A DNA stretch of 64,000 nucleotides from Blasia pusilla (lineage: Eukaryota), in NCBI GenBank assembly GCA_050084515.1, contig CM114271.1, positions 19,654,001 to 19,718,000 of the forward strand, in the 5' to 3' direction. Position 1 is the first letter of the stretch. Each line of letters begins with the position of its first letter. Below the pieces are notes generated by a model, which worked only from the letters and a program-made list of their open reading frames with translations, did no database searches and had not been told where the DNA came from. Positions 15,271 to 58,213 of the stretch are shown piece by piece. The position numbers and the translations under genes are program-made.

Positions 15271-15515
15271 CATTATTCCATGTCATCTAAGTGACGCGTC
15301 AGTCATGGCCTCATGACTACACCCTTGAGTCATATACTAACCTCCACCTAAGCTGACCATCCTAGTTAGCCTAGTCGCCAAAAAAATATGACTTGGATTT
15401 TATGTCTAAAGTAGTTTTCAGTCATTGTTAGTTGTGGTATGTAAAGTATGACTCATATGAGTCTTATAACCTAGTCATAAAACCAAGGATTTCATCTAGT
15501 GGCGGAACTCTGTAC

Positions 15516-16140
15516 CTTGGTCTGTCAACACCTCAGTTGGTGCGCCGTAATGACTCAACACTAGAACTAGGAAGGCATACGCTACTCCCTCACTTGCTTT
15601 GTCAAGCAATGCAACCAACTCTATCCACTTTGAGAAGTGCTCGACCATCACCAACACATATCGACCATACAACTTGGCCCAGATTCAATAATGGTGGCGA
15701 GGCATGCAGACTGACATTCAGTAGTTTGTTGCCTGATGCATGGTATGTGATCAAGTCTGAGCATTGTTCAATGCTCCGACTCCACAGTTGCATCCACTTC
15801 CGATCATGGGTTTAGGTTATAGATGGAGTTTGGATTTTGCAAGACCTTTGCCTTTAACGGAGTGTCATAGTCGATATGTGTTGGTGATGGTCGAGCACTT
15901 CTTGATCACACACCATGCATCAGGCAACAAACTACTGAATGTCAGTCTGCATGCCTCGCCACCATTACTGAATCTGGAGCAAGCTGTATGGTCAATATGT
16001 GTTGGTGATGGTCGAGCACTTCTCAAAGTGGATAGAGTTGGTTGCATTGCCTGACAAAGCAAGTGAGGGAGTAGCGTATGCCTTCCTAGTTCCAGTGTTG
16101 AGTCATTACGGCGCACCAACTGAGGTGTTGACAGAACAAG
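15516..16140. repeat. Inverted repeat with 240-bp arms (15516-15755 and 15901-16140) built from integrase sequence
   Basis: Arms are near-exact reverse complements; the same peptide appears in ORFs 15432+ and 15865-. Confidence 0.88.
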
Positions 16141-18329
16141 CTTTACTCCAAAATGACCCAACTCCTCGTGGGCATGATGCACCAAACGTGCACTCTACGA
16201 AGGATGAGGCACTACATGCACTCTACCATCCTCCCACACTTGCAACACATGTGTCCTCTCCCACCATAACCGTCTGGCCCGCTGTAGGATCCGATCTCGC
16301 CCTCTAGCATCCCACTGTGCTTGCGACGTTGCCAATACGCAAGTAATCCAAGACAACTCCATCGTCGTGAATATCTCAACCACCTCTCATCTCCTCACCG
16401 ACCTCTAGATCTAAGGACTCTCCATCAGATCTCACCATCAAAGTCTCAACAATCTAGCTCTCCATACCGAACAAGCCCAAATAGGTTGACGCATGCCATC
16501 TTGGCACCAACTCCTCATCACTCTCACCATGCCAACGAGCTCCAATCGCATCTTGCTGACTCAGGCATGAGTTACGGCTCAAACCATCTGTATCGTGGTT
16601 GAGTGTCCTATGTCTATGCACCACTTGGAAGTCATACTCTAGCAACAAAAGAGCCCACCTCGCAAGCTTCCCTGTAAGCTTGTCGGACTCCATCAACCAC
16701 TTGAGTGGCTGATGATCAGTAATGATGGTAAAGGGATTGCTAAATAGATAACATCTGAAATGTGCAACAACCCACACTGCAGCCAAGCACTCACACTCAT
16801 ACGAGCTATACTTTTCCTCTGCAACATTGTTCAAGTGACTAGCGTAAGTCACCACGAACTCTCTACCATCATAGTCATGCTGGGTGAGCACGGCTCCAAG
16901 CCCAACATGCTCTAATCGGTATGCAACTGGAAAGGACGCCCCCTGATCGGTCTCCTCAATATGGGCGCGGATGTCAATCTATCCTTGAGCATCTAAAATG
17001 CTCTCTCTTGCTCATCCTCCCTGTGCCACTCCTGATCCACCTTGGCCAGCAAGGTCAGCGGCTTCGCAATCGAGCTGAAATCCTTGACGTATTGTCGATA
17101 GAAGTTTGCCAATCCCATGAATACACGAACTCGACTCTTATTGTAGGGCATGGAATGCGTGAAATAGCCTCTACCTTTGTCTGCTGCACACCAAGGGCAC
17201 CTGGGTACATCGTATGACCCAAGTACTCAATCTGTTCGTAGAAGAACTTGCACTTGCCTAGATGTAGCTTCAGCCCATGTAAGTGCAATCGTCGAAACAC
17301 CTCCTCTAGATGTCGCTCATGCTCCTCAACCGTGGCGCTAAAGACTACGATGTCATCAATATAACATCTAGCAAAATCCAGACCTATCAAGATCCTATCC
17401 ATGACCCTCTGAAACTTAGTCGGGGCGTTCTTTAACCCAAATGGTAAGAACCGCCACTAGTACAAGCAATCCTTCCCGTGAGGATCGATGCCCCAAAATG
17501 TCCTCTTCTGTTTGTCCTCCAATCTGATAGGCAATTGATGGTATCCGGCTTGTAGATCTAACGAATTGAAGACCGTTGCATGCCCAATAGCATCAAAGAT
17601 TTCCTCAGGAGTGGGCATGGCATACCTATCGAACTTCATCTGCCGGTTGATAGGTCGATAATCTCCACACATTCGCCTATCCGTTCAGTTGCCATGCATA
17701 TCCTTCTTGGTGAGCATGATAGTGACAGATGCATACTCTCCATGCGACATCTCCACTAGTCCTGCTCCAACCAAGTCTTGGATCCTACTCTGAATCAGAG
17801 CCCTCTCCATGTCACTGTACGTGTAGGGTCGTCGGAAGATCGGCGTGTCACTCGACAACTCAATGCAGATCCCTGGACCCTTGAGCGTACCCAAATCATG
17901 CATACTAAATGTAAAATAGTTCCTATAACTCCTAAGGAACTGGTATATCTGGCGCCGCTCTCCTCTTGTCAACTTAGGGCCCATATCTGGCTCCTCAAGT
18001 CTCCATATGACTACGGTAGGACTCTCCGGCGTGGATATTGGTGGTTGCTATGGTGCAACCCCATCTCAGACAACAAAACTCGACTTCTCACGACAGTCAG
18101 CTGCAAAATCGGATCTCCATGTGCAATACCCAAAACCACGCTCGATGGTGTGGCTACCATCTCCTAGTGTAGCAAAACATCCCAAGAAGTCCAAGGGTGT
18201 CTCTCTGGATCACTCCTAGTGTGTTGATCTCCTCGGGTCTCATCCCCAGCCATTGCCTCAACCGTCTCGGTAGGGATGGGGCTCACCAACGCAACTTTTG
18301 TGATCTATCACATCCTCAAACGAGGTTAC

Positions 18330-19300
18330 TCAACTACTCCTAAGCTGAAAATCCATGTCAAGCAGTTCATGTCCATTGCCTGACCCAAGACATAATGTCG
18401 TGATGCCTCTGATAGTGACGGTACTGCCGTCACCTCTGTGGGGAATCCCATCGCTCGCTCTCGCTCATCGCCGTTGGGCTCCACCAACCTCTATACCTGG
18501 TCATCCCAAACCAAGCCAAGTCCGGGCTTCTTGAATGCATAGGAAGCGGGAAAACTCACCAATGTGGAAAAGGGTGTTCGTGGCATGCCAATCATGTTGA
18601 CCATAGTCAATGGCAGTCGATCATCGTGCCTCACTGCCTATGATCGACGGCCCAGATCCAATATAGAATCCACTAACAAATCGGAGGGACGCTCCACTCT
18701 CGCATAAGCTGTCCGCAACATCTCATGTGGTACCAAGTTGGTCCACCAAAGACGCGGATGGTGTGCTCTAGAACCTACACTCGCCCCATCTAACAAAACT
18801 GCTGGGCCGATCCATGCGCGCACCAGATTGTGCACTCATCACCACGCGAGACCTTGAATCGCCCAAAATCGGCACATTCTCCAAAATGTATGTTGGAGAA
18901 CGAGGCTAATGCTCTTGTCAATGTCGCAAGATCCACATCATCTCCCAAAACAATGTGGACTGAGTGCCAGCTAACCTGCTACCTCGTCCAACACTCGATT
19001 GGCCCTGCCACGGCCAACCAGCAATGACCAAGTCTATGGTCCCTACCCGCTCCAAGTCCTGCGCCCCCAACAATGAAATGTCCCTTGGTAGGGAACTCTG
19101 GCAACCCTGAATGGCGGACGCAGAAAAAAAGTCGGGAAAACTGAAGGTGTACTTGCGCCATATGGTGAATTGAAGCGCGCCTTGCAACATCATCAATCTC
19201 CACATACACGTACTACTACACGCGCACTCCAGCGTACAAAAAAATAGTTAACCCAATGCTGATCCCTCCAAAGAGATCCAACACTCGAATACCCTCCTCT
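18330..19300 (-). pseudogene. C5 cytosine DNA methyltransferase domain (DNMT3-like) inside the Gypsy pol region; full motif set but degenerate
   Basis: Hand translation: I IRVLDLFGGISIG; II YVEIDDVARR; III PRDI; IV IDLVIAGWP(W)QG; LFWEMM; VI YILENV (18873-18890); VIII SRAHHPRLWWTNL; IX ERERAMGFP; X RHYVLGQAMD. Contains stops and 2 frameshifts. Confidence 0.92.
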
Positions 19301-22297
19301 AGGATTCACCACACAATCGAGGTGGTGTCCAAAGGGGTCATAGTAGCACTCCTGCCTGCGTGGGTTTCTTCTGACCCATCACACTCTAGTGCAAACGTCT
19401 TGCTCCACGGGGTCTGGACATGCTTAGTGGCTAAGCGTCGAAGCTCCTCAGTCGAGATCCAAAGCGACACCTCTCCTCCACGAATTGATGCGGCTACCAT
19501 GACACTCTTCTCCATAGAAATTTCAAGAATGGGAGTATCCTCTACATGGACATGTCCCTAAATCAAATCACTAGGCCAAGTGATGGCATTGCTAAATGCT
19601 GCTAAGGTCGCCATCTCTCTTGGCCGTCGCTCAATCACTCCACATGTGAATCAAACGGGTAATGAGCTAAGGCGCTCATCATCTGACTGCCATCTTGGTC
19701 TATAGGAAATTGACTCCTCCCAATAATCTAGGTAAAACCCCATTGGGTATAACACTGTTCCACCAACCAAGACGTCGTAGGACTCTGTATCAGTCACTAT
19801 CGCCTTGGCTCGCACCACGAACGCATCTGTAGGATGGCCTGGGCGAATCCTCATGACGACCTCTTGTCGGGTGATATACTATGTGATACTCGCTCCACCC
19901 AAGGATGTATGTATCCAAAATGGACAACGCTCCATATCGGCTCTCGTCAAGCCCAATCCTCTAAATGACGCTTTCCCCAACATCAAGGGTTGCGCTTCTA
20001 AATCCAACAAGACGCGGTGCGGACTAAAAGCTCTACCTCTGGAACTCACCAATTGGAAGACATCTCCCCAGTTATCCAACAACACAACACCAGGAGAAGC
20101 CATGGCACGCTCTATCGCGGATCTAGCGGGCATCTCCGCCATCCTAGCAGCCGCAACGTGCCATGAATCTGACGTGGACGGCCCAAGCATAAGCTCCAAG
20201 GGCAAGTCCATCACCTCCTCTACCTCAGGAGAAGTGCACCTTTGAATGTGATGCAGGAACTCCAACTCCACGCTCACACAGCGTAGCGGCCAACCAGAAC
20301 ACCTCGGCGGGCGTACTCCCACTGTCATAACATCAAAAGCAAAAAATAGCGGAGCATGGTACACCATCGTGGCCGTCCCCAACATCATACTCGACACATG
20401 CTCCTCCTGAGCATCAATAATAGGAGTCATCACACTCGTTTCTCCCATTGCCTTCCGTGCCTGCATACCAATAGCATCACCAAATCTCCGGGAACTCTGA
20501 TCAGGATCCATCAATGGGGTCCTCAACAGTTGATCAACCGTTGATCATCCGGCACAAGCGAGTGTAAGCATCATGCAAACTCTCACCTGGGCATCTCTGG
20601 AAGTCATGGATGCTCCACAACTTCTCTGTCCGTACCCCTTGGTAGTTCGCCCTCAACTTAGCAAAGAACTCAACCATGGGGTTGAACTTGGGATGTACCC
20701 TACTAGACGGTGCAACTGCTGCAGTGCGAGTGACCCCTCCTAAAACATCACTAGTGGAAGAGGAAGTAGCCTCTCCTGACTCCTCCTCCTCATCTAGGAA
20801 CGGCTCCGTCCATGACACATAGTGTGGGTCATAGTAGAGTTGCCATGCCTCAATCTCTTGGGCATATCTGTGCGAGAACTCATGGTAATCGTCCATGGGC
20901 GCCCCCTCTAAATGCTGGAACATACCATTCCATGTTGTAAACGGGTTGAACTCTCTAGAGTTCTTAGCCCGCTTTGAATCACACCAACTCCTAAACTCCG
21001 CAATGAAGTCGTGTAGCTCTATAGTGCCTAAAACACCCGAAAACCTATGCGGTCCTCTACCCGGGTCGTCCATCTCGTACGCCCAACTGGTAGGACCACT
21101 CAATGTGTACGGTGGATCACTAACACACTCCTCTACATGCTCCCCCTCATCTAGAGATGACACAGAAGGAGATCGAGGTGGTCTCTCACATGGAGACCCT
21201 TGAAACCTTGCACCACTCCGGGTAAACCCTCCAAAGTTACTCTCAGGTCCACTACCTTGCCTCTCAAAATCCCAAAAGGACGCCGTGATGGCCCTTGTGC
21301 CCCTCTCACACGATCACTCTCAATCTCGCAAGTATTCCCTCAATCACTAAAACTAAACATGCGGCACTCAATCTACACTCTCTCACTCAGATGTGTGTTG
21401 TGCGGAAACAAGCGGCACGGTCCGGGAAATCAAACCTCCTCGATGTGCGGTGCAGGTCCAGCGGTCCGGTGCGGCAATGGCGGCACGGAACGTCTACAAA
21501 TAGCACGGCACTCGGGAATGGGGTGTGGGACTCAGTGGCATACCCTCCTCAATCAGAAATTCACACGCTCTACTCCTTAGTGAAGGAGCGACTCCGCGAT
21601 CGAGACGGTGCTGTACGGCCACAAGCCGCATGGCACGACAATCGGCGGCGCGTTGCGGCTACAGGCGGCTACGGGCATCACGGCACAGTACTTGATCGTC
21701 ATCGAGCGGCTACCAATCACAACATAGCAACATGCAATGAAAACTCAAACGCCATAATCCGAGGTCACATTCTCTCTTTGTAAATCAAGATCCAATCTCT
21801 CTCAACTCCATAACTCTGAAATGTGTGCATTCTCACATGTCTCTCTGAATGTCAAACCAAACCCACTCTCCTAATGAGAGGCTTGGGTTACACACACAAG
21901 GCAAGCAAGACCATAGCTTAGTCGTATCATGCCAAGAGGTTTCAACAAAGAGAGAATGAGCTCTCAAGCTCTCTCTCCTTGAGATATATCCCTCCCCTCT
22001 CCCAAGCTCTCTCCATGGTAACCTATGCTCCCAAGTCACCTTGTTGGCTCTTGACCTGATGTAGGAGGTCAAGGGCCTTTTACCAAAAATAAAAATTTGA
22101 TCATATACTCAAAATGGCACTTACCTAAAATAGTAAGTTTCTCAATATGGCTCCAAATGAGCCGAAACGAAGGGGAAACCTGCTCTCTTAGGTTTCTCGG
22201 GGCCTGAACACGTCATCCTGGACCTCTTGAGCCTCTCCTCCACTACTCGTGAAGGCGCTCTACTAGATCTCACCGATCTATCCAAAAAGACATGACA

Positions 22298-22529
22298 TAG
22301 GTAATCCAAATGGGAGTCATCCATTTTAAGTCCCAACCATTTAAAACTCTTGACTAGACGTCACAAATATTTTCATGACTCAATGTACCTTCTATGACTA
22401 AATGAATGACTCTCTAAGAATCAAAAGGAATAGCAATGACTCCAAGAGTCAAAGTTATGATCATCTAGTCATGAAACGCTTACGAGTCGTTAGCTCTTGA
22501 GTCATAAAATTGGGTATTTCCTTCTAGTG
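22298..22529 (+). mobile_element. Right end of a second CACTA element (subterminal repeats and terminus)
   Basis: ATGACT/AGTCAT motifs, ending gtcataaaattgggtatttccttcTAGTG, paralleling the terminus at 15501. Confidence 0.75.
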
Positions 22530-25166
22530 ATATTGGCCGAAAATGAGTGTACGGGGAGTTGGATTGAGGGCCAAAAAGAGGGGCCCCATTGTCTTTTCTC
22601 CAAAGTTAGGGGGATGGAAGAGATCCCCAAAAGTACTAGTAAGGGGAAGTATCTCCAAGTATGCTTGGGACTCAAACCCCGCCTTGGAGCGCCATAGGGC
22701 AGCTCAAGGGCACGGAATGAAGTGAGAGTTTGGTGGTGGGACTCGGAACCCAAACCTGGTCCAAGGGAGTGGATTTTGAAAGCCAAACTTGGATTCCAAC
22801 CCGTGACTCATTTACGTGAGTCTCGATTAGGGACTCATTCGAGGTCCATTGAACAATTGGGACCGCCATGTGTGCAAACGCCGTTTGAGGTCTCTGGACT
22901 AACCAAAAAGTATGTCCCAAGTCTTGAGAGACTTGCCTATGTTGTAAAGCAAGAAACTAGGAAGGTTGAGCTTGATGAGAGGCCAAGTCGAGAGCTCGGT
23001 GAGTTGGAACGCTTATTGATCCAGACCCGACTAACGTGAGTGTATGTTTCGGTGTAGATCAGTAGTGAGAGCTTGTCCTATAGAATGCACGCTTCCGCAA
23101 CACTAAAGATTGACCTTGAAGGAGAGTAGGCATATGACATGTGGTATGAGAGCTAATCCTTGGTGAGTGTGAACTTGGGTTTGTGGGAGATTTGGATGTT
23201 TGAGAAGAACTCAAGGTAGCAAGGAGACCTAGACACTCGGGGAGGAACGCAAGAAACAAGGAGGAGATTTGAGTAGGCGAGGACTCGAGAATGACGACCA
23301 AGGGCGAAGAACCAAGGAAGCTATGAGTCAAGAAATTTTTTTTTGAGAGACATACCAATGACTAACCGCAAGTCACAGGAGGAGATAGCGACTCCCAAAG
23401 CTCCGAGCCCTAGACATGAGGATGTCCTAGACATAAATCTTTCCACAGGGCCTTTGGTTCCAAACTCAAATGACCCGGCCCTCTATGTCTAGATGATGGA
23501 CTTGATGAAGTTGATGACTGAGCAAATGACCCAACAGAGTAAGCGGATTGTTGAGCTTGAGTTAGACAAAGCTTCTAGTTTCAGCAAGAAGCTTTGTAAG
23601 GCAAATCTGCATACGCCATTCACAAGAATGGGACGGTCTCGAAAAGTGAACGAGTCCTGACGGAGCCGGAACTTTACTTCAGGGCGTGAAGGGCAAAGGA
23701 GCAAGACAAGATGACCATGGCGGTCACGTTCCTTAAGAATCACGCACTCCAGTAGTGGATGACTCATCGCAACAACCATCTAGGCCGTGGAATAGCTTTG
23801 GGTTGGGAGGAGTTCTTGGCGACCAATTCACTCCGGAGTACCAGGAGTTTTGTGATGGTGTGGAGTTTGTATGGTTGCAACAAAGTGGATCCCTTAGCGC
23901 TTATGTGCTAGAGTTCAATGCAATAATGAACTCGATCCCAAAGATGGATATAGGAGTTTGCAAAGAGGGTCATCTTCTTAAGTAGACTTAAGCCAAGCGC
24001 AAAGAAGGCCCTCTTCCGGATGCTTGAGCTACCAAAGACTTCTATCAAACTTTTGAAGCTGGCGGAGCGGATAGGGGACGATGAAGTTCAAGTCCAAAGA
24101 CCCTTTAAGTAAAAAAGTTTTTTGTGGTTTCCGAAAAAGCAAGGGGGCGTCCAAGAGGGTTTGGAGTGGGGTGGGCGCAACCATGGAGGGTCTCTTATCC
24201 CAGCATCAAAATGAGTGGAACTCAACACAAAGCCAAAAGGGGCGCCGTACCCAAAGTCAATGAACACCAAAGTGATTTGCTACAATTGTGGTGAACTCGG
24301 GCACAAGGCTAAGCAATGCTCAAAGCCCAAGTTTAGTAATCCCAAGGTTAGTAATCCAAGGCCAATTAGTATGATTGCGTTTGCTGCTAAACACTTATTG
24401 GTGGGAGGTCTAGAGACATCTCTCCAAGTCACCAAGAGGACGCCCACTTTGGTTTACATAAGATCCAAGATCAATGATTACGATGTGATGTTGCTGGTTG
24501 ATACAGGTGCTTCACACTCCTTGAGCACGAGAATCGTGAAGGCGTTGGGGTTTTTGACCTCTAAGGCGGACGAACCCATTAGGGTGTGTTCCGCGGGAGG
24601 CAAGGCCCACAAGACCTCAGAGTTGGTTTTAGGGCTAACTGCAGGATTCGGAGTATTCGAGTTGAAGGAGAACTTCACGGTGTGCGATAGAGACAGAATC
24701 GCTGGACTCTTGAGGAACACGTTCTTAGAGGCATACGAGGTGGAACTGAGTTGAAGACCTTTGACGTTGAGAATCTTGGTAAAAGGCAACCAGTTGTAGG
24801 TCAGGTTGGTTCGTGAGGTTCCTATGAAGATAGAGTTGGTGAATGCCATTAGGAGGACGAGTTTGACCAAGTTAGAGGATGGATTTCTTATCTGGATGTT
24901 TGAGACAAGTAGAGGACGATGAGATGCAGAGATCAGGATTCAACTTGAAGGGGAATCCTTGAAACACTCAAGAGAGTAGTGAAGGAATTTAGTGATGTCT
25001 TGACGAAGGAGCTTCCGATTGAGTTGCCACCACATAAGGCAGTCAATCATAAGATAGAGGTGATATGAGGGTCTCAACCGCTTTCAAAGGCGCCATACAA
25101 GTTGAATCAAGAGGAACTTGTGGAGTTGAAGAAACAGTTAGGTGAACTCCTAGAAAGGGGTTACAA
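22530..25166 (+). mobile_element. Truncated chromovirus-type Ty3/Gypsy element: partial 5' LTR, PBS, gag, protease, start of RT
   Basis: LTR ends GACA at 23139; PBS tggtatgagagc at 23142-23153 (tRNA-iMet type); zinc knuckle CYNCGELGHKAKQC; protease LVDTGASHS; KAPYKLNQEELVELKKQLGELLERG. Confidence 0.88.
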
Positions 25167-25169
25167 GAG

Positions 25170-33285: not shown

Positions 33286-33287
33286 TG

Positions 33288-34140: not shown

Positions 34141-34141
34141 T

Positions 34142-35908: not shown

Positions 35909-35909
35909 A

Positions 35910-37031: not shown

Positions 37032-37183
37032 TATCATGCGCATATATATCGTTGTCACTGAATACACACACAAAGTTAACACAAAAGATACCATACTAAC
37101 TCACGGCATCTAAACATCTTGTACCAAAATATCTCCAATAAATCATGATCTCTCAAATACCTCTCTTAATGTGCATACAACTA

Positions 37184-37276
<93 letters not shown>

Positions 37277-38510: not shown

Positions 38511-38780
38511 TATCATGTCTTTTAAGATGGATCAATGAGTTTATAGTAGAGTGCCTTTGAGAGTTTTAGAGGAAAACCTCAAGAGGTCAAGGATGATGTA
38601 TATGCTAAGGCCATGGGAAATCTAAGAGAGCATGTTTTCCCTTCGTTTCGACTCATTTGGAGCTATATAGAGAAAAATACTATTTTGGTAAGCTAACGTT
38701 ATGAGTAGCGCTTTGGGAAGTGGTCCTTGATCCCTTACAATAGATCAAGAGCCAAGGAGGTGACCTATGAACATAGGCTA
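38511..38780 (+). mobile_element. 5' part of an A repeat interrupted by a Copia LTR
   Basis: tatcatgtcttttaagatggatc...gatcaagagccaaggaggtgac matches the A repeat up to 38780. Confidence 0.75.
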
Positions 38781-43100: not shown

Positions 43101-46100
43101 TCGATGATTGCAGTTACATGGGCTAAAGCTACATCCAGGCAAGTGCAAGTTCTTCTATGGCCAGATTGAGTACGTGGGTCATATGATATACCCAAGGGGC
43201 CTTGGTGTGCAACATAAAAAGGTAGAGGCTATTTCACGCATTCCACGCCCTACAGATGTGAGTCGAGTTCGTGCATTGATGGGATTAGCGAGCTTCTATC
43301 GACGGTACGTCAAGGCTTCAGTTCGATTGCAAAGCTGCTAACCTTGATGACCAAGAAGGATCAAGAGTGGCACTGGGGGGATGAGCAAGAGAGAGCATTT
43401 CAGATGCTCAAGGACAGATTGATATCCGCGCCCATATTGAGGAGATCGATGAGGGGGTGTCCTTTCCAGTTGCATACCGATTGGAGCATGTTGGGGCTTG
43501 GAGCCGTGCTCACCCAGCATGACGATGATGGTAGAGAGTTTGTGGTGGCTTACGTTAGTTGCTTGAACAATGGTGCACAGGCGAAGTATAGCTCGTATGA
43601 GGGTGAGTGCTTGGCTGCAGTGTGGGCTGTCGCACATTTTAGATGTTATCTATTCGGCAATCCCTTTACCATCATTGCTGATCATCAGCCACTTAAGTGG
43701 TTGATGGAGTCCAACAAGCTTATAGGGAAGCTTGCCAGGTGGGCTCTTTTGTTGCAAGAGTATGTCTTCTAGGTGGTGCATAGACCTGAGACGCTCAACC
43801 AAGATGCAGATGGTTTGAGCCGTAACCCATGCCCGAGTCAACGAGATACGATTGGAGCTCGTTGGCATGGTGAGAGTGATGAGGAGTTGGTGCCAGGATG
43901 GCACGCGTCAGCCTATTTGGGCTTGTTGGCTATGGAGAGCTAGATTGCTGAGACTTCCATGGCGAGGTCTGATGGAGAGTCCTTAGATCTAGAGGCCGGT
44001 GAGGAGGAAACAAGTGGCCGAGATATTCACGATGATGGAGTGGTCTTGGAGTACCTACGTACTGGCAGCATCGCGAGCACAGTGGGTGCTAGAGAGCGGG
44101 ATTGGATCCTACAGCGAGCCATACGGTTCCGATGGGAGGGCACACATGTGTTGCGAGTGTGGGAGGATGGTAGAGTGCATGTAGTGCCTCATCCTTTGTA
44201 GAGAGCACGTTTGGTGCATCATGCCCACAAGGAGTTGGGTCATTTTGGAGTGAAGCACACGTACAGCTTGGTCCAGATTCAGTATTGGTGGCGAGGCATG
44301 CAGACTGACGTTCAGCAATTTGTTGCTGGATGCATAGTGTGTGATCAAGTCCGAGCATTGTTCAATGCTCTCCAAAGTTGCATCCACTTCCAATCATGGG
44401 TTTAGGTTATAGATGGAGTTTGGATTTTGCAAGACCTTTGCCTATGACGGAGCGTGATAGTCGTTATGTGTTGGTGATGGTCGAGCACTTCTCGAAGTGG
44501 ATAGAGTTGGTTGCATTCCCTGACAAAGCAAGTGAGGGAGTAGCGTATGCCTTCCTAGATTGAGTGTTGAGCAATTATGGCACACCAGCTGAGGTGTTGA
44601 CAGACCAGGGTACACAATTTCGAGGGGAGTTTCAGGCCTTGTGTGATTAGGCACTAATCAACCACTGCACTACTTCGCGAGATCATCTTGAGGCGGATGG
44701 ACTAGCAGAGCAAGTTGTGCACACGGTGAAGAAAGGACTACGTACGTATCGCTTGCAGAGAGGTCACCTAGGAGATTGGGACCTTCAATTGCCGTGATTG
44801 GCGATGTGATACAGATTCACCAGGCGGGCATCCTTAGCGTCTTTCTCACCGTACTTGTTACTTTATGGCCGAGAGCCAAATTTACCTATTGCCATTGGTC
44901 AAGATTTTGGTGAGGTGTTGACCCTTGATGACCTTGATGTATGGATGTGAACATGTTCTCACAGGGCTGAGTTGTTTTGGAGAGTGATGCCAATGGCGTT
45001 TGAGAACTTGGCGATTGCGCAACATCGGGATACGTTGAGGTATGCGACTATTCGGGGAGGTGGTTATCGACCCACTATCCGGAGGTTTCATCAGGGAGAC
45101 TATGTTTACTTGCAGCAGACAGCACCCACGATGTTGGATGTAACTATAGGGCGCACCATCTTGAGAGTGCATGAGGTTTTACCATCCGATGTTCTCTTAT
45201 TGGAGGAACACAATGGTATGGTTTGGAAGGACCATGTGCGTAACTATGCGCCATGTAATCTTCCGAACATTGACGGTATAGTTGATCCCAACTTAGCAAT
45301 AGTTCATGTTGGCTTGCGGTGTATGTTGTGTGGTTTCGCCCATAGTGCATCCACTATGCTAGTCTGTGATGCGTGTTCAAGAGGATGGCATATGGCATAT
45401 TTGATGCCACCTCTCACTAGGGTTCCTCAGGGACGATGGATGTGTCCCAGATGTACATAGAGTAGGTAGTTCTACATTCCGACCTGTGTCTATGATATGG
45501 ATGACAGTAAGACGACTAAAGATGGGGCCATATAAGCACCCGGCATTCTTGCTCTTAGCGTCCCAGAGATATATGTCATGGTAGGTAGGGATAGATGGCT
45601 ATCTGGAGTTAGAGGGACCTAACCACCAGCTAGGGGGGCGATTGGAGATATTATGGTACTTCTTGTCTTGTTTTTTGAATGCCATGAGTTAGTATGGGAT
45701 CGTGCGTGCTTGTGTGTGTATTCGGTGACAACAATGTATGTTGTGTAGCGATGTATATACGCATGAAAACTGTCACGTCTTTTAGGATATATCAATGAGA
45801 TCTAGTAGAGCGCCTTTATGAGTAGTGGAGGACAGGCTCAGTAGGTCGATGATGACTTGCTAAGGCCCCGAAAAACTTGAGAGATTAGTTTTCCCTTTCG
45901 TTTCGGCTCATTTGGAGCCATATTGAGGAACTTACTATTTTAGATAAGTACCATTTTGAGTATATGATAGACTTTCTATTTTTGGTAAGTGGCCCTTGAC
46001 CTCTTACATTAGGTCAAGAGCCAAGGAGGTGACTTGGGAGCATAGGTTACCATGGAGAGAGCTTGGGAGAGGGGAGGGGTATACCTCAAGGAGAGAGAGC

Positions 46101-46405
46101 TTGAGAGCTCATTCTCTCTTTGTTGAACCTCTTGGCAAGAGGCGATGGAGCTATGGTCTTGCTTGCCTTGTGTGTGTAACCCAAGCCTCTCATTAGGAGA
46201 GTGGGTTTGGTTTCACATTGAGAGAGACATGTGAGAGTGTTCACATGTGAGAACTATAGTGTTGTGAGAGAGATTGTATCTTATTTGATTGGAGATATTT
46301 TGGTACTTCTTGTCTCGTTGTTTGGATGCCATGAGTTAGCATGGAATCGTGTGTGTGTTCGGTGACAGCAATGTATGTTGTGTAGCAATGTGTATGCGCA
46401 TAAGA
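40107..46405 (+). mobile_element. DNMT-Gypsy copy 2: partial gag-PR-DNMT(N-half)-RT-RH-INT-PHD-B1 (45641-45768)-A2 (45771-46287)-B2 (46288-46405)
   Basis: Protease VLLDSRAQ; IRVLDLFGG; RT CYIDD near 43030; RNase H HTDWS...DHQPL; integrase WSLDFA; PHD 45316-45460. Confidence 0.92.
42187..42414 (+). pseudogene. DNMT motifs I-III; the rest of the domain is deleted
   Basis: IRVLDLFGGIIT...FLYVEIANVARR...LPRDISLLG, followed directly by the pre-RT linker. Confidence 0.88.
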
Positions 46406-46439
46406 AGCATCATCACATGTTTGCAAGTCATGAAGACAA

Positions 46440-48480: not shown

Positions 48481-48481
48481 T

Positions 48482-51400
48482 TTGCCGTAGAAAGAATGTG
48501 AGAATCTCAGGTTTGCTGAAAACAGAGAGCGAAGAGGTGAAGAGTGTTGTCACCAAGTTCTTGGTTGATACACTTCATGTTCATAACCCGGACTTGGCTC
48601 AAGCTTTCCGTATTGGGAAAACGGGCACACAACCTCGTGTCATTCTAGTTAAGTTTGTTGATCAAACTCAACGTGATACTGCCATGGCGAACAAGGCCAT
48701 TCTCAAAGGACGGAGGATATGGTTGGATCGTGATCTCACACCTCTACAAGTCGAAGCTAGGAGAAAGGAGCTTGCAAAGGTCAAAGAGGCTCAAGAAGCA
48801 AGTTTTATTGCTTATCTACGCGATGGTTAAGAAATTGTTACCCAGAGAAAAAGAGAGTGATCAACCTAGCAATCCAAGAAGCTGAGAGTGTTGATGTGGA
48901 ATATACAAGGCCTTTCAACAACAAAGTATGTGAGTGCTCTACCAATTTGGGGGATGGCGAATATCATCAATATTGTGGAGACTTGGGAACATGAGAGCAA
49001 TAATATTGCAGAGGTGGAAGGGTTTACTTTGGTGGGATCGACATGGAATCAAAGAAGGCAACGGGCAGGAAGGGGTTATGGCGGTATTGCTACTTTCATC
49101 AGGTCTCAATTTCTACCTCTCATACATCTAGAAGATCAAGATATCGGGGGCCAATATCATTGGCTACGTCTTGGTTTGGTTGGAGGATCTTATTGTTATT
49201 TGGCAGTTTGTTATTTTGGACCACTCTCCATGTCTATCTACTCAACACGCACTCATAATCGAAGTCAACCGTTCCATCAACTTATTGGGGATGTTCTCAA
49301 ATATCAAAGCAAAGGTGAAGTCTTTCTAGTTGGAGATTTCAATGCTCGCACACGTACTCCTCAATTTACCCAATTCAGTGATTCCTTGATTTCTCCTCTT
49401 CTCGAAGAACATGAGGATGGTTTGTGGTCTAGAATCTCTTCAAATCTTTCTAGAAATCCTTTGACATAGCATTTTTTAACCTTCGGAGCCACTTGTAATT
49501 TGAAAGTTCTTAATGGAACCTCTCATTTTCCCAACTCTCACTCCAATACGTGTTTCTCCTCTACCGGCGCTAGCACCATCGATTATCTTCTATCCTCGCC
49601 CGCTAATAGCTCTCTTATCTCTACATTTGATATTCTAGAACCTCAGCCTGAATCAGATCATGCACCTCTTTTGTTTACTCTCTCACTGTCAAAGCCAACT
49701 CCTCTCTCGACATGTCAATCTATTTAAGCTTCTCCCAAGTTTCGCTTAGATCCTGGTAAAAAAGATCTTTATACGCTATATTTACAAGAACTCTTGACTC
49801 GCATTGTATGGAGCCCAGATCCAAACACGGCAAGTATGCAACTAACCGAATTGCTCAAAAATAGTGCATCTAAGTTCTTTTCGCGCCATAGGGATAGAAG
49901 TGCTAGGAGGCTGCCTTGTAATGGATGGTTTGACTCTGAATGCAAGCAAGCAAGGGCACGATGAGTTGATAAATCTTTGGATATCCCAAGTCGGCTTATT
50001 ATGACGAGCCTTTACAAATACTTGGTGAAATCTAAGAAACGAGCTTTCTTGCGGCGGAAACAAGAGTCCTTGACAAGGGAGCTGCATGAGGATCCCAAAT
50101 CATTTTGGAGACGGTTAGTAGTACGGTCTTCAAAACCTATTCTTGATCCCAAGTCTTTGATATCTTTTGCCGAAAAGCTCTATTTCTTCCCCGATGCTAC
50201 ATCTATGCCACGTTGTGAAGGAATACCTGGCTTATTCTCTGAAGGCGAGGTGATGACTCAACTAAGAAGATTGGCGAATGGTAAATGTGAGGATTTGGAT
50301 GGTCTTTCTATTGAACTTTTCTAGTGGGGAGGAGATTGTATTGGACCGATCCTCACCAAAGTATTGGATGATGCTGCTATCTATGGTTTTCCTCCAACGT
50401 GGTCGCTACGGGAGATTGTTCCTATTCACAAATCAGGAAGGAAGGACTTGATGAAAAACTATCGCACTATCATGGTGGGTAGTGTTTTTGCCAAGTTGTT
50501 TGGGAAATTGGTAGAGTCGAAGTTGAGCACATGGACAGAGACTTTCCAAAAGAGAGCACGGGTCCAATCTGGTTTTCGCCCAACATACAACACCATCGAC
50601 CATATCTTGGCCTTGCGTGTTTTATGGGAGAAATCTAAGGGCAATGGAAAAGCTTTGTTTTGCGGCTTCATCGATTTCAAGAAAGCTTTTGATATTGTAC
50701 CTCGTAAGCTCTTATGGGAAAGGTTGCAAGCCATTGGAGTACCACCAAATCTCCTAGCAACCGTGGCCACGTTATACCATTCCGTTCGGGCCAAGATCAA
50801 AGGTTCAAAAACTCAAGAGATCTTGAGTACCATTGGAGTCATTCAAGGTTGCCCTCTCTCCCCTAAACTTTTTGGAGTTTTCATAGATGATATCGAAAAG
50901 TGGTTGGAGGAATGTGATAGTGAAGGTGTCAAGCTTGGGGACTTTGTCATCAAAGCTCTATTGTATGCAGATGATATCATATTACTAGCACGTGATGGCA
51001 TTAGTTTACAAAAGCACCTCGACACTTTGGCAAGGTTTTGTACCCAGAATCACATGGAGGTTAATATGGAGAAGTCTAAAGTCATTATAGTGGGTACTAG
51101 ATCCAAATTCTCGTTCTTTTACAAAGGTCTACAATTAGAACAAATGAAGAGTTATAAATATCTAGGCATCGATTTCTCTAATGACTATAGTTGGACACTT
51201 TGCATGCAAAAGAGAGTAGAAGCTGGTTACAAAGCTCTATATTCATTTTTAAACTGGTGTAGTAGAGCTCATCTTGTATCTTGGAGTCTTAGGAAATTCT
51301 TATTTAGGAGCTTAGTGTTGCCGGTGGTCTTATATGGGACCCAATTTTGGGGCCCTAGTTGTAAGAAGACAGGTTGGGAGCGCGTGGAGAGAGTGCAAAA

Positions 51401-52208
51401 GATCTTTCTACAAGAAGAATTGGGTGTAAGAAACCAAACTCCGTATGCTATTCTTCTTGCGGAAACAGGTTGTCTTCCTCTAGAAGCTGAAGCTCTTTAC
51501 TTGATCATCACTTACATTGCAAGGGTGAGATCTCTTGATCTTTCTCGCCTCCCTCATCAAGCTTTGCGAGCCACACATTCCATAGGATGGATGGCGGATG
51601 TGGTGACTTGGTCTTCAAAGTGGAATGTGGCAGAACGCGATTGGGACTTGAAACCAATGGCCCTCCGTGAGCATCTACAGAAGCAATTTCTCAATATTAT
51701 TTGGAGGAGCCGGGGCACCAAAATGGAGTTTTATCAACTTCATGTTAATCCTATGCTTGTATATTGTGAACAAGGATACCTACTTGCGGGGATCTCAACA
51801 TTTTAACGTCATATTATCGCACGACATAGAACTGGGTCTCATAGGCTAGGAATTGAGGAAGGACGATGGTTTAATATTGATAGAAGTGAACGAATTTGTA
51901 GGTTATGTGACGGAGAAAATATTGAGGATGAAGAGCATGTGTTTGTTACATGTCCAAGGTATGCAGAGATTAGACTAACTCATAAAATAGATGTGGAGAA
52001 TTTTTATTCTTTACTATAGCTAGTGCCTTATGATTTAGGTTGTTATATTAGGGACGTCATTATTTATCGCTCAAGTGCTCTAGGCTGTAGCTAGGAGAAG
52101 GTCTTAAGGATCTTTTCAGGGTCAGTGAATGAATGACTTGTAATGTGTTTTTCAGCCTTTTGACCCTTTGGGTCCCACCGGCTTGATCTATTTACCATTT
52201 ACCATTTA
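48482..52208 (+). mobile_element. 5'-truncated non-LTR retrotransposon (RTEX-like): ORF1 3' part, ORF2 APE-RT-CCHC, (TTTACCA)n tail
   Basis: ORF1 RRKNVRISGL...AFRIGK...PRVILVKF...DRDLT; endonuclease WNIQG, ETW, GDFNA, IDY, SDH; RT QGCPLSP, LLYADD; RICRLC...EDEEHVFVTC near 51890-51955; tail at 52190-52208; possible TSD CAAT. Confidence 0.9.
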
Positions 52209-52319
52209 CAATACACACACTGAGCTTAAAAGTTGAAAGCCACAATTGGCTCCACAGCAAGGTCTCCACTCCAATGGATAGAAGGTGATTTCTCTAAACC
52301 TGAGGTGGAGTTCACCTCC

Positions 52320-54017: not shown

Positions 54018-57000
54018 TGTCACATCTGAGTAGCCGATAGGGCGAGATCTATCGTGGATAGGGCGTAGGAGCCAGCGGACTATCTTGAGTGTAACTTTTT
54101 CCCACGGTGTCGGATGAGGTTGAGGATAGGTCCATTGTGTCAGGAATGTCGTTTCTGAAAACTTTCATGTTGAGGTCTTTTACAGCCGGGTGACTTGTTG
54201 ACAGTCACCCCTGGTAACCTGTCTTGCGCTTGAGTTACCAAGGGGAGGGCTATTTTTAGGGGAAGAGCCTTTTGGTTCTTCCCAACCCTATATAAGAGAG
54301 GAAGATGGCTTTCCTAAGCCATCTTTCTCATGTTGGGCCGTTAGAGCACCTCCCTTGTACGGGTCTATCATCCCGTTTTAGGTGGTGACACGGGATGATA
54401 AACCACCGTTGGCCATGGCCAATAGGGTGGGGGAGTTGAGGGCAGCCTTACCTACGTTGGTGAGCTTCCCAGCATCCCATGCCTTTCGTCAGGGAGGGCC
54501 AGGCATGATTTGGGATGAGGTGACCGGAGCATTGGAGGAGCCTATAGCAAATGAGCGCGAACGCGCCATGGGGTTCGCTACCGGTACTACGGCGGTGACA
54601 GGGATGACTGAGGCATCCCGGAGACAGGTGTTGGGGCAGGTGATGGACCTCAACTGTCTCACATGGATAGTCAGCCTATGTATGGCTGAGCAGAGACGGA
54701 TGTGAGTGTCCTCCATGCCGTCACGTCCACGAGTTGGACCATTGCCTACAGGGTCTGTACAGGCATTGGCTGGGGGCGAGAGGAGGAGAGATAGGCACCC
54801 ATGGACTTCCTGGGACGTTGTTCGAGCACAGAGTGCAAAGGCGGCTAGAGTAGCACATGTTCATTTTTTGGATGTGGAGCATGGTGTAGGAGGTTAGAGT
54901 GGAGTGGTTGTTGCGGAGGTGGCTAGGGTTGCTACATAGCAACCAAAGCCGAAGGTTGCGTCCTCTCCGAGTGAGGTCACAATGGAGACTTGGGAGCGTG
55001 TGATAGGTCTCAAGTTGATAGGAGGAGAGCGATGGCAAGTTCATAGGTTTTTGAGAGGGCATGTCAGTTGTTTTGCCTTCAGTATGAGAGACTTGGATAC
55101 GCTGAAGGGTCCTGGGATACGGATTGAGTTGGCTAGTGATACGCCGATCTTTCGTCGACCCTACAAGTATTCTGATATGGAGCGAGCCTTGATTCAGAGC
55201 AAGAGTCAGGACTTGTTGGAGGCAGGACTTGTGGAGTTATCACATGGGGAGTATGCATCTGCCACAGTCATGCCGGCGAAGAAGGATATGTATGGCAATT
55301 GGACGGATAGGCGGATGTGTGAAGATTACCGTCCTATCAACCGACAGACGAGGTCAGATCGGTACGCCATGCCTACTCTTGAAGAGATCTTTGATGCGGT
55401 AGGGCATGCAAAGATCTTCAGTACTTCAGATCTCCATGTTGGCTATCATCACCTTCCTATCAGGTTGGAGGACAGGGAGAAGATAGCATTCTGGGGGATA
55501 GATCGGTTCGGGAGAGATTACTTGTATTAGTGGCGGTTCTTACCATTTGGGTTGAAGAACGCGACTATAGAGTTTCAGAGAGTGATGGATAGGACTCTGG
55601 CTGGCTTGGATTTTGTACGATGTTACATAGATGATATTCTTATATTTAGTTCCACGGTTGAGGAGCATGAGCGACACTTGGAGGAGGTGTTTCGGCGATT
55701 GCAGTTACATGGATTGAAGTTACATCCAAGCAAGTGCAGATTCTTTCAGGAGCAGATTGAGTACTTGGGACACACCATATACCCGAGTGGGTTAGGCGTT
55801 CAGCAGACGAAGGTAGAGGCTATTGCACAGATTCCACGCCCTATAGATGTGAGTCGAGTTCGAGCATTTCTTGGACTAGCAAACTTCTATCGACGGTATG
55901 TCAAGGGTTTTAGTGTGATCGCAAAGTCTTTGACCTTGTTGATGAGACTTGATCAGGTTTGGTTGTAGGGAGATGATCAGGAGCGAGCATTTCAGGAGCT
56001 CAAGGTCAGGTTGACGTCCTCACCTATTTTACAGAGACCGGTTATGGGTCCCCATTCCAGTTACATACGGAATGGAGCATGTTGGGTCTAGGAGCAGTGC
56101 TTACTCAGAGGGATGACGAGGAGAGGGAGTTCGTTGTGGCTTACGTGAGCAGATCAAACAACATTGCATAGGCGAAGTACAGCTCCTACGAGGGAGAGTG
56201 CTTGGCTGCAGTGTGGGCCGTGGCACATTTCAGGTGCTATTTATTCGGAAACCCTTTCACACTTATCACTGATCATCAGCCGTTGAGATGGTTGATGGAG
56301 TCCGACAAGCTTACGGGAAAGCTTGCCAGGTGGGCTCTATTACTACAGGAGTATGAGTTTGAGGTGGTTCATAGGCCAAGTCGGCTGAACCAAGATGCGG
56401 ATGGGTTGAGTTGTAACCCATGTCCGAGTCAGAGAGACGACACAGGAGCTCGATGGCACGGAGAGAGTGATGAGGAGATGGTGCCCGGTTGGCATGCATC
56501 TGCCTATCTTTGTTGGTTGACTATGGCAGGTAAGCCACAGGTGATGACTCCAGTGGTGGGTTTGGATGATGAGTCTTTGGATCCGGAGGTTAGTGAGGAG
56601 GCGACAGGTGGTCGTGATATCCATGACGACGTGGAGGTTGTGGAGTTCTTGCGCACTGGCGTCATTGCGAGTATAGTGAGTGCTAGGGAGCGGGATCGGA
56701 TCCTACAAAGAGCCAAGAGGTTCAGGTGAGAGGGGACTCACATTTTGCGGGTATGGGGAGAGGGTAGGATACGAGTGGTACCTCATCCTTCCCAGCGAGC
56801 ACGTGTAGTGCAACATGCCCATGAGGAGTTGGGACATTTCGGAGTAAAGCGTACTTACAGCTTACTCCAGGTTCAGTATTGGTGGCGCGGCATGCATACA
56901 AGGGTACAGCAATTTGTGGCCAAATGTATGGTATGTGATAGAGTGTGAGCATCCTTCAATGCTCCTACTCCGCAGTTACATCCTTTGCCGATTATGGGTT

Positions 57001-58213
57001 TAGGTTATCGGTGGAGTTTAGACTTTGCGGGACCGTGTTGGCCATTTAGATCAAGTGGATAGAGTTAGTCACTTTGGTGCAGCGGCGAGGGCAGGTTATG
57101 CGTTTCTAGATCCTGTGCTTAGTCACTTTGGTGCACCCGGTGTTGGTGTGGTACCGAGTTCATGAGAGAGTTTCAGGCCTTGTGTGATCAAGCACTGATA
57201 GATCACCGCACCACGTCCAGAGATCATCGTGAGGCGGATGGGATGGCAGAGAGAGTGGTACAGACGGTGAAGAGAGGATTGCGTAAGTATGGCTTGCAGT
57301 GGGGACAGTTGAGGGAGTGGGACCTACAGTTGCCATGGTTGGCTATGGGTTATCGCTTTAGTCAACAAGCATCCTTGGTGTCATTTTCACCGTACTTTTT
57401 TCTCTTTGGGAGAGAGCCAGATTTACCTGCAGCGATTCGACGTGACATGGCGGAGGTGTTAGATCTTGATGATCCACATGTGTGGGTACAAGCATGTTCT
57501 CAGAGGACAGAAGTTTTTCGTAGAGTTATGCCTATGGCCTTTGAGAACTTAGCTATTGCCCAGCATAGAGATACATTGAGGTACGCGACCATTCGTGGAG
57601 GAGGTTATCGTCCAGGGATTAGGAGGTTTCATCCAGGAGATTACGTGTATTTACAGCAGGCGGCACCCACGACGCTAGATGTCACTGTAGGGCGACGATC
57701 CTATGTGTGCACAAGGTATTACCGACCGGAGTCCTCATGTTGGAGGGACGGGATGGTATGGTTTGGAAGGATCATGTGCGCAATTGTGCGCCATGTCATC
57801 TTCCGAACGTAGATGGGACGGTGGATCCGAGCTTGGTAGTGGTACCTGCAGGCTTGAGGTGTATGTTGTGCGGATCTGCGAGGGGTGGAGCCACCATGTT
57901 GGTATGTGATGGTTGTTCTCGAGGGTGGCATATGTCATGTCAGACCCCCCCTCTTGATGTGGTTTCCACGGGACAATGGATGTGTCCGAGATATGTATAG
58001 GGTAGTAGGTCATGTCAGAGAGATGTGATATTTTCTATCTGGAGTTGGGGGGGATCCAACTGCCAGCTAGGGGGGCGGTTGTGTGATCTCCATGTATATG
58101 TATGAGTTGATTTTTGTACATGTGTGGATCGACCCGTGTGTGGGGAAGATCGGTGTTGTGTGGTGTAGATGTGACCAGCGATGTATGTTGTGTAGCGATA
58201 TGTATCCACGACA
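54018..58213 (+). mobile_element. DNMT-Gypsy copy 3 (distinct subfamily): 5' terminal segment, large internal deletion, DNMT C-terminal part-RT-RH-INT-PHD-B
   Basis: Starts TGTCA and ends cacGACA; flanks ACTC / GCTC; RT CYIDD near 55624; PHD 57859-57995; the two flanks rejoin in one minus-strand reading frame. Confidence 0.9.
54382..54705 (+). pseudogene. DNMT target-recognition region and motifs IX-X
   Basis: PTLVSFPASHAF...EPIANERERAMGFATGTT...SRRQVLGQVMDLNCL, collinear with 18330-18640. Confidence 0.88.

Follow-up and report, generated by a model that had tools for sequence, protein, structure and literature searches.

Does a retrotransposon family of the liverwort Blasia pusilla carry a DNA methyltransferase of its own, and if so, where in the element does the enzyme lie and what might it do there? 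The question arises from a 64-kb stretch of the B. pusilla genome (GenBank assembly GCA_050084515.1, contig CM114271.1, positions 19,654,001 to 19,718,000 of the forward strand), here called the window, whose coordinates are counted from its first nucleotide. A reading made from these letters without database searches (the sequence-only reading) had recognized a DNMT3-like C5-cytosine methyltransferase between the protease and the reverse transcriptase (RT) of a Ty3/Gypsy element. Self-comparison and six-frame translation of the window revealed a transposon nest with no evident host gene, in which self-BLAST and translation identified four insertions and one solo terminal repeat of one Ty3/Gypsy-type family: copy 1 (about 15503-22297, minus strand), copy 2 (40964-46400, plus strand), copy 3 (54382-58213, plus strand), which is 74-75% identical to the other two in nucleotide sequence and represents a diverged subfamily, a fourth copy with an internal deletion (34151-36828, minus strand), and the solo repeat (14642-15270, plus strand), recognized from its sequence, from gaps in reads, and by BLAST of its segments A and B. 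Every insertion of the family in the window is broken, as translation and self-BLAST demonstrate, and the nearest named relatives of each element protein in protein database searches come from liverworts. Taking all the evidence jointly, we consider it very probable that an intact member measures about 8-9 kb and encodes one polyprotein comprising gag, aspartic protease, DNMT3-type methyltransferase, RT, RNase H, DDE integrase, and a PHD finger, and that the family is of the Gypsy-DNMT3 kind exemplified by KnitGypsy-Dnmt3 of Klebsormidium, with repeats in the order A-internal-B-A-B, TG...CA termini, and 4-bp target duplications.

A DNMT3-like methyltransferase domain

In copy 1, a C5 methyltransferase domain of DNMT3 type with motifs I to X in order occupies 18329-19305 of the minus strand, as located by motif positions, the Pfam DNA_methylase model (PF00145), and a family hidden Markov model (HMM). 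All eight motif strings first quoted for this copy (I, II, III, IV, VI, VIII, IX, and X) are present in canonical order at 18371-19284, though spread over three reading frames; seven pieces tile the domain in order along profile positions 35-356 of the family HMM, with 2 frameshifts and 6 in-frame stops between them. In motif IV, the sequence GWPWQG has a tryptophan where the catalytic cysteine belongs. PF00145, which had been proposed as a check on the domain's identity, matches the middle piece (18771-19247; E = 7.7e-7; 29.3 bits, with a cutoff of 22); the N- and C-terminal pieces, searched singly, gave no Pfam match.

The other two methyltransferase remnants are shorter and fall where they were first placed. 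Copy 2 is truncated at its 5' side and begins with the protease region and the start of the methyltransferase (40964-42414, plus strand; self-BLAST, translation, and HMM). Its open reading frame (ORF) at 41828-42421, open over 198 aa, corresponds to profile positions 10-113, with motifs I-III at about 42173-42414. The equivalent of copy 1 positions 17985-19063, about 1.08 kb holding motifs IV-X, is deleted from copy 2, and for this reason its methyltransferase runs straight into RT; the limits of the deletion follow from the self-BLAST alignments of 19063-20525 with 42414-40964 and of 16140-17985 with 44256-42408. Copy 3 has lost its 5' part: an open 107-aa frame at 54382-54702 (plus strand; HMM positions 255-361, 1.8e-51) retains motifs IX-X, and the sequence upstream holds nothing of the domain.

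To establish the sequence kinship of the domain, a relative, protein P0007, was compared by phmmer with all PDB sequences. DNMT3A was closest (3.6e-11), followed by DNMT3C and DNMT3B, and below these came tobacco DRM (1.2e-6), HaeIII (4.5e-5), Arabidopsis DRM2 (0.004), and HhaI (0.012); motifs I-VIII and IX-X of P0007 align in DNMT3A order. An AlphaFold model of a second relative, P0020 (mean pLDDT 72.3, pTM 0.75), was used for a fold search of the PDB, in which the matches listed to rank 50 are DNMT3A, DNMT3B, and DNMT3C chains only (E from 1.3e-17), with TM scores by target length of 0.42-0.79. On the strength of these sequence and modeled-fold comparisons, the domain is assigned as DNMT3-like and not permuted, as the sequence-only reading had proposed. 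A bacterial origin was considered and rejected, bacterial enzymes scoring far below DNMT3 in the PDB sequence search.

With DNMT3A, DNMT3B, and DNMT3C, the closest solved structures, the domain shares its catalytic fold and motif order. It differs from DNMT3A in sequence (about 22% identity in the structural alignment) and in context, lying inside a retrotransposon polyprotein whose PHD finger is far downstream, after the integrase. In cellular DNMT3, the ADD domain, a zinc finger that reads histone H3, is coupled to catalysis; neither PWWP nor ADD was among the Pfam matches of 14 relative polyproteins. Plant DRM enzymes are related to DNMT3 and supplied the next-best PDB matches, but their motif order is permuted, whereas motifs I-X stand in the standard order here.

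The residues missing from the window are kept in its relatives. An alignment of 20 relatives forms one coherent family in which motifs I, II, IV (AGWPCQG), VI (ENV), VIII, IX, and X are constantly spaced. P-C-Q is invariant in all 21 aligned domains, as is the N of ENV, whose E and V occur in at least 90% of rows; the glycines of motif I and motif IX are likewise conserved. Among the 56 relatives found in our first search (see below), 40 have PCQ, and at least 5 of the remainder are fragments beginning beyond motif IV. In the window itself, motif IV is missing from copies 2 and 3, and in copy 1 Trp takes the place of its Cys.

Position of the domain in pol

A six-frame scan found methyltransferase pieces at three places only in the window, each directly upstream of one RT-RNase H region, and all three of the RT-bearing copies carry the domain in this position. 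In copy 1, RT and RNase H are spread over six frame pieces (16457-18047, minus strand; RVT_1 1.1e-21, RT_RNaseH 5e-30; HMM tiling of positions 2-412). They lie at 42609-43769 in copy 2 (plus strand; Pfam RVT_1 3.2e-12, RT_RNaseH 3.8e-34) and at 54940-56726 in copy 3 (plus strand; HMM tiling; Pfam RT_RNaseH 2e-20). Each of the three copies thus has Pfam matches to RVT_1 and RT_RNaseH downstream of the methyltransferase, and copies 2 and 3 also have one to the integrase zinc-binding domain; the integrase core (rve) was matched only in copy 2, below the curated cutoff. On the other side of the domain, copy 1 has a protease region ORF of 221 aa (19882-20544, minus strand) with a degenerate active-site triplet. 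By BLASTP this ORF aligns at 46% identity over 83 residues to residues 711-793 of the relative P0058, overlapping the Pfam Asp_protease_2 match of that protein (753-837). The gag and protease ORFs of the window had no Pfam match of their own. The Gypsy-type order of protease, RT, RNase H, and DDE integrase is accordingly found by Pfam on the window ORFs, by way of P0058 for the protease, and within one ORF in the relative P0057.

In P0057, a single product of 2240 aa, the protease is followed by methyltransferase, RVT, RNase H, and integrase, and a PHD pattern closes the protein. Intact relatives with this series of domains in one ORF, from protease to PHD finger, come from Marchantia, Calypogeia, Riccia, Sphagnum, and many metagenome contigs. 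Among 80 metagenome loci, chosen for their similarity to a bryophyte-type domain, RT follows within 1.5 kb downstream of the methyltransferase in 63, the remaining 17 have no room for it, and RT lies upstream in none. These arrangements bear on whether the pieces might instead be a host DNMT3 gene or pseudogene hit by Gypsy insertions, or a chimera of the assembly. That every window copy is fragmentary is the sole point in favor of such an origin, which we consider extremely improbable: the junctions to the protease region and to RT are the same in three copies from two subfamilies, single ORFs span protease, DNMT, and RT in relatives, the metagenome loci place RT downstream wherever there is room, and a DNA read depth of 147-228 over the domain, compared with 3-7 in the flank, indicates that the domain is repeated together with the element. 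We conclude that pol contains the methyltransferase as a fixed and intronless component, placed between protease and RT and shared by the subfamily of copies 1 and 2 and the diverged subfamily of copy 3, which upholds the central claim of the sequence-only reading.

Relatives and phylogeny

When a protein collection was searched with the C-terminal piece of copy 1, 56 longer proteins were recovered. The best relative was P0001 of Calypogeia fissa (70% identity), many Marchantia polymorpha "hypothetical proteins" had 62-64% identity, and Riccia sorocarpa, Sphagnum fallax, and unnamed metagenome proteins followed in that order. Public protein sets hold dozens of such bryophyte relatives (Marchantia, Calypogeia, Riccia, and Sphagnum) labeled only "hypothetical protein", so the supposed rarity of these elements in land plants is not supported. 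A HMMER search with the domain profile returned 13885 cluster representatives at E <= 1e-3, a set that surely includes ordinary methyltransferases; at the stricter limits of 1e-10 and 1e-30, 2739 and 582 were left.

A second layout, RT-RNaseH-DNMT-integrase-PHD, was found in Haematococcus lacustris and in many metagenome polyproteins, and no paper naming it was found in our literature searches. It is represented by P0116, P0118, P0125, and P0127 of H. lacustris and by about 45 metagenome polyproteins, some of these products being 2700-3600 aa long. Elements of the Haematococcus and metagenome group (P0053, P0055, and P0077-P0121, including P0116 and P0118) share with the window family the methyltransferase subfamily (35-40% identity, same motifs), the RT lineage, and the C-terminal PHD finger. 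They differ in carrying the methyltransferase between RNase H and integrase, whereas here it lies between protease and RT, and the two layouts separate cleanly on both trees that we built. In the RT-RNase H tree (52 rows), 8 DNMT-before-RT rows, 5 from the database and the 3 window copies, fall on one side of a branch with Shimodaira-Hasegawa-like approximate likelihood ratio test (SH-aLRT) support of 99, and the window copies adjoin Marchantia P0046. In the methyltransferase tree (74 rows), 46 RT-before-DNMT rows lie on one side of a branch with support of 99, and copy 1 falls within a 10-row group with Marchantia and Calypogeia rows, also with support of 99. The congruent split of both trees shows that the domain has long descended with the element and indicates that it changed its place in pol once. 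From these comparisons the writer appears to sit between RNase H and integrase in chlorophyte-type members and between protease and RT in bryophyte-type members.

The kind of element is already known. (The papers cited here are represented by excerpts, to which our statements about them are limited.) A Gypsy element with an intronless Dnmt3 in pol, with conserved key residues and Ka/Ks below 0.2, was published by de Mendoza et al. in 2018 as KnitGypsy-Dnmt3 from Klebsormidium nitens (PMC5890265). The legend of Fig. 4c of the same paper describes its repeats as arranged as in DIRS elements (A-coding-B-A-B) together with Gypsy-type domains (PMC5890265), and later papers place DNMT3 in retrotransposons of "streptophytes" under the name "Gypsy-DNMT3" (PMC12344493; preprint 10.64898/2026.05.21.726589). 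As far as those excerpts go, KnitGypsy-Dnmt3 and the window family have in common the Gypsy pol, an intronless nonpermuted Dnmt3 domain within the polyprotein, the A-coding-B-A-B repeats, conserved catalytic residues (in our case those of the relatives), and a domain Ka/Ks below about 0.2. KnitGypsy-Dnmt3 is described from a charophyte alga with few copies, whereas here the host is a liverwort and read depth is tens to hundreds of times that of the flank. Our data extend the published Gypsy-DNMT3 kind to bryophytes. In full-text searches, which did not cover subscription papers or supplements, no paper naming these elements in liverworts, mosses, or Marchantia was found.

Could the bryophyte elements have captured DNMT3 independently of the Klebsormidium elements, and so constitute a new kind? 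The capture of DNMTs by retrotransposons is recurrent according to the excerpts (PMC5890265; preprint 10.64898/2026.05.21.726589), and no Klebsormidium-named protein was among the matches listed in three protein database searches. That absence among the matches listed is weak evidence, however, and the unusual A-coding-B-A-B arrangement on a Gypsy pol is common to our elements and the published description. The congruence of the DNMT and RT trees, which includes the chlorophyte Haematococcus, likewise points to one old acquisition across Viridiplantae. We therefore think such convergence improbable.

Two further systems join a retrotransposon to a DNA methyltransferase in pol. SymbioDIRS-Dnmt3 of Symbiodinium, which methylates CG de novo in yeast (PMC5890265), differs from the window family in belonging to the DIRS class with a tyrosine recombinase. 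The EpiLTR elements, described in the excerpt as combining methyltransferases with a chromatin reader (preprint 10.64898/2026.05.21.726589), differ in that their DNMT is sister to DNMT4 and that they carry an adenine methyltransferase and a chromodomain.

Selection on the domain

A dN/dS comparison among copies had been suggested as a check on the methyltransferase, and between the two subfamilies it revealed selection. Over the 102 codons of motifs IX-X that copies 1 and 3 share, pN was 0.264 and pS was 0.736, giving a ratio of nonsynonymous to synonymous change (omega) of about 0.11, with synonymous sites near saturation. For other parts of the element, comparison between the subfamilies gave an omega of 0.22 for RT, 0.06 for RNase H, and 0.21 for the PHD region. 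Among 21 pairs of metagenome relatives with open frames, 15 were excluded (11 without any dS and 4 more with a dS of 2.3-3.1); the domain yielded an omega of 0.16 for L012/L015 (363 codons), 0.10 for both L028/L035 and L062/L035, and 0.35 for L028/L062 at a dS of 0.05. From these sequence comparisons we conclude that the domain is under purifying selection in deeper comparisons, with an estimated omega of about 0.1-0.2.

The terminal PHD finger

A PHD finger follows the integrase immediately and closes the polyprotein in copies 2 and 3, the reading frame stopping right behind it; the deleted copy carries the same PHD sequence. In a PDB search with the finger of the deleted copy, the closest solved fingers were those of CHD4 (9.8e-17), PHF12, KDM5A/B, Lid, KAT6A, DPF2/3, PHF21A, AIRE, and UHRF1, most of which read the unmodified H3 N terminus or unmethylated H3K4. 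The arrangement resembles that of chromoviruses, in which a small histone-reader module is likewise fused to the integrase C terminus and is presumed to steer integration. The module is a chromodomain there and a PHD finger here; our Pfam scans gave no chromodomain match. Chromoviruses have ordinary long terminal repeats (LTRs) and no methyltransferase. PHD fingers are described as common accessory domains in Chlamydomonas transposons (PMC8557442, from an excerpt), and no description of the integrase-PHD fusion of the present elements was found in literature searches. The finger and the split direct repeats described below are features beyond those first noted in this DNA.

Split terminal repeats

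The terminal repeats of the family are not ordinary LTRs but split direct repeats in the order A-internal-B-A-B. Copy 1 opens on its 5' side with segment A (about 511 nt; 21787-22297, minus strand), which was identified by self-BLAST to the other A copies and starts with TGTCATG at 22297; unique sequence, and not B, comes next. By BLAST with the two segments, copy 2 and the deleted copy both terminate on their 3' side in the order B-A-B, with B of about 116 nt: in copy 2 (45641-46400, plus strand) these are B' (45641-45766), A (45771-46286), and B (46288-46400), and in the deleted copy (minus strand) they are B' (34882-34757), A (34753-34241), and B (34240-34151). Copy 3 retains a remnant of B (58176-58213, plus strand; 87.5% identity over 40 nt by BLAST of B). 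Reads that carry the junction of A to the 5' untranslated region appear as loose ends at 15155 in the solo repeat, and both types of junction are seen at the A/B border. The solo repeat itself consists of A (14642-15154) and B (15155-15270) on the plus strand, has TG...CA termini, and is flanked on both sides by the 4-bp duplication CATT. DNA reads skip 633 bases between 14637 and 15271, which is exactly the solo-repeat insert.

Metagenome relatives share this anatomy. Of 12 long loci, 6 have clear repeats (about 290-310 bp), 2 have weak ones (67-73%), 2 share another repeat of 919 bp, and 2 have none; the anatomy described here is based on the 6 loci with clear repeats. The same B-A-B end occurs in 5 of 6 full-length relatives, with B of about 175 nt and 87-95% identical, and the termini TGTCATG...CACGACA are common to these relatives and the window. 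Target duplications of 4 bp are perfect in 3 of 5 metagenome relatives, match at 3 of 4 bases in the other two, and are perfect at the solo repeat of the window.

Five of the loci (L028, L046, L047, L072, and L080) are full-length elements of about 9.3 kb whose A repeats are 80-92% alike and whose frames are mostly broken. By this anatomy, their contigs look like eukaryotic genome fragments within environmental assemblies.

Abundance and transcription in the host

One DNA and three RNA raw-read runs of the host species (the RNA runs being X18, X19, and X20) were aligned to window positions 13000-24000 at a likeness of at least 90%. Summed DNA depth reached about 2585 in the repeat bin and about 1050 in the best RT bin; it was 147-228 across the three methyltransferase bins and 3-7 in the flank (23276-24000), figures that indicate tens to hundreds of related copies. 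Over the element interior, the first mates of RNA reads lie almost only on the plus strand in all three runs; in the usual stranded libraries this means minus-strand RNA, in sense relative to copy 1. The depth of RNA reads was 12-53 over the RT/RNase H bins (16303-18137) and 0.5-4 over the methyltransferase bins; of the four protease bins, three (19239-20339) had 10-25 and the fourth (20340-20706) had 0.6-2.0. We conclude that the host species has the family in abundance and transcribes it in sense.

Whether it is still alive there is a separate matter, and extinction, with the RNA arising by read-through or residual transcription of dead copies, is the principal competing account of its status. 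All four window insertions are broken, and the private substitutions of the copies are dominated by C-to-T or G-to-A changes (copy 1, 52 of 88; copy 2, 46 of 81), at CG and elsewhere, an excess that fits long-standing host cytosine methylation of dead copies. RNA reads at least 99% like the locus are few (13 of 1841 in X18, 24 of 2190 in X19, and 15 of 1921 in X20). However, the interior RNA is strand specific and in sense in three runs, and copy number is high. At several frame breaks of copy 1, moreover, most genomic reads differ by a one-base insertion or deletion, indicating that other copies do not share those breaks, although current mobility is not proven thereby. Extinction is a serious possibility in our judgment, if not the one that we favor.

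Within the aligned interval, 13000-13733 is moderately repeated (DNA depth about 64) and expressed from the strand opposite to that of the element. RNA-only reads there skip 242 bases (13023-13266) with GT..AG ends, indicating a spliced transcript.

Other features of the window

The remaining parts of the copies complete the picture of decay. Copy 1 has a gag-like ORF of 259 aa (20537-21313, minus strand), recognized by homology and 44-49% identical to the N-terminal parts of the Marchantia and metagenome relatives P0071, P0012, P0008, P0010, and P0006. Its integrase is a rearranged remnant (15503-16456) without a single orientation, and the integrase C terminus, PHD finger, and 3' repeats are missing. 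Self-BLAST against copy 2 shows neighboring integrase pieces pointing either way, which indicates a local rearrangement, and the remnant includes a 240-bp inverted duplication (15516-15755 versus 16140-15901, 96% identical). In copy 2, the integrase zinc-binding domain and catalytic core occupy 44202-44950 (plus strand; Integrase_H2C2 1.1e-16; rve 2.8e-4), and the integrase C-terminal region with the PHD finger occupies 44951-45457 (plus strand; PHD PF00628 1.3e-8). Copy 3 has its integrase and terminal PHD finger at 56730-57997 (plus strand; Integrase_H2C2 1.4e-17, PHD 8.8e-10), the PHD ORF being 57623-57997. The deleted copy (34151-36828) lacks methyltransferase and RT: its gag (36828-35991, minus strand) is fused to an integrase C terminus (35920-35582), and a PHD ORF follows (35578-35072, minus strand; translation). 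Beside it, at 37078-38780, diverged pieces (70-80%) of family repeats and integrase-PHD lie in both orientations, possibly a fifth, older insertion.

The rest of the nest is of other kinds. At one edge of the window (1-2219) is a tandem array with a repeat unit of about 350 bp and copies 79-85% alike (self-BLAST offsets of 350, 686, 1037, 1392, and 1742), and remains resembling a CACTA/En-Spm element occupy 5300-8585 on the plus strand (Pfam Transposase_21 at 6511-7002, 5.5e-15; DUF4218 at 7208-7705, 7.7e-11). Part of an unrelated LTR retrotransposon lies at 24215-24751 (plus strand), where a single ORF holds a zinc knuckle (4.1e-7) and an aspartic protease (6.2e-7). Between copies 2 and 3, a long interspersed nuclear element (LINE)-type element at 48870-51803 (plus strand) combines an endonuclease/exonuclease/phosphatase domain (48870-49466) with an RT frame that is open over 493 aa (50325-51803; RVT_1 1e-31). 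Short tandem repeats (58519-58958; unit about 70-190 bp, 76-78% alike) lie just beyond copy 3.

Discussion

How might a retrotransposon use a methyltransferase and a PHD finger? We propose that the methyltransferase would be translated within Gag-Pol and travel with the integration machinery. The PHD finger, much like the chromodomain of chromoviruses, could tether the integrase to nucleosomes in one particular histone H3 state, which we take to be unmethylated H3K4 by analogy with the closest solved relatives. The methyltransferase might then methylate the element's own new DNA or adjoining DNA de novo, such that the epigenetic state of a fresh insertion would be set by the element rather than left to the host. 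By analogy, candidate benefits of such methylation to the element may be hiding, limiting its own harm, or mimicking host gene-body methylation.

Several points weigh against this account of the family and its enzyme. Every window copy is unable to make the enzyme, so nothing here shows activity, and the H3 state proposed for the PHD finger is an extrapolation from what its closest solved relatives bind. Within the subfamily of copies 1 and 2, selection is near neutral, with an omega of 0.84 for RNase H and 1.66 for DNMT motifs I-II (51 codons only), as expected for copies decaying after insertion; among the metagenome pairs, L002/L003 gave an omega of 0.88 at a dS of 0.06. The 80 metagenome loci and the database relatives were found by way of the methyltransferase and are thus uninformative on the share of the family without it. 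Depth in the methyltransferase bins is below that of the best RT bin, 3-7 times for DNA and about 10 times for RNA, which could mean faster divergence of the domain or many family members that lack it, as copy 2 lacks most of it. Most RNA reads are 90-95% like the locus (1558 of 1841 in X18), indicating that they come from other copies and report on the family, not on copy 1. Kinship with KnitGypsy-Dnmt3 is suggested by shared anatomy only. Finally, in the published yeast assay, the KnitGypsy-Dnmt3 enzyme gave no methylation, a result that its authors, in the excerpted text, called inconclusive, human DNMT3B having failed too (PMC5890265).

The yeast result would also fit the main alternative on function, in which the domain is kept for a noncatalytic role as a DNA- or nucleosome-binding or oligomerizing module, like DNMT3L, an inactive partner; purifying selection shows that there is some function but not which one. 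Against such a role stand the inconclusive nature of the assay and the conservation of residues needed solely for catalysis or cofactor binding, namely P-C-Q, ENV, the glycines of motif I, and motif IX. We regard a noncatalytic role as quite unlikely and favor a catalytic one.

In its widest form, the proposal is that the window copies represent the land-plant branch of one old, Viridiplantae-wide Gypsy-type lineage with a DNMT3 writer, an integrase-fused PHD reader, and split repeats, in which the writer moved once in pol, which is expressed in bryophytes, and whose enzyme adds de novo methylation not made by the host. As a conjunction of all these parts, this is speculative, and we would sooner expect one of them to fail than all to hold.

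If it were true, part of the liverwort methylome would be written by a transposon, beyond the host's DNMT3, DRM, and CMT enzymes, and Marchantia, for one, would offer a tractable model in which to test what transposon-borne DNMTs do, a question open since 2018. Elements of this kind are present in bryophytes, that genetic model among them; in at least one host they are both abundant and transcribed, and they bear a histone-reader finger on the integrase. Bryophyte "hypothetical proteins" with PF00145 may accordingly be transposon genes rather than host methyltransferases. A retrotransposon equipped with the hosts' own silencing enzyme is a rare inversion of the usual arms race.

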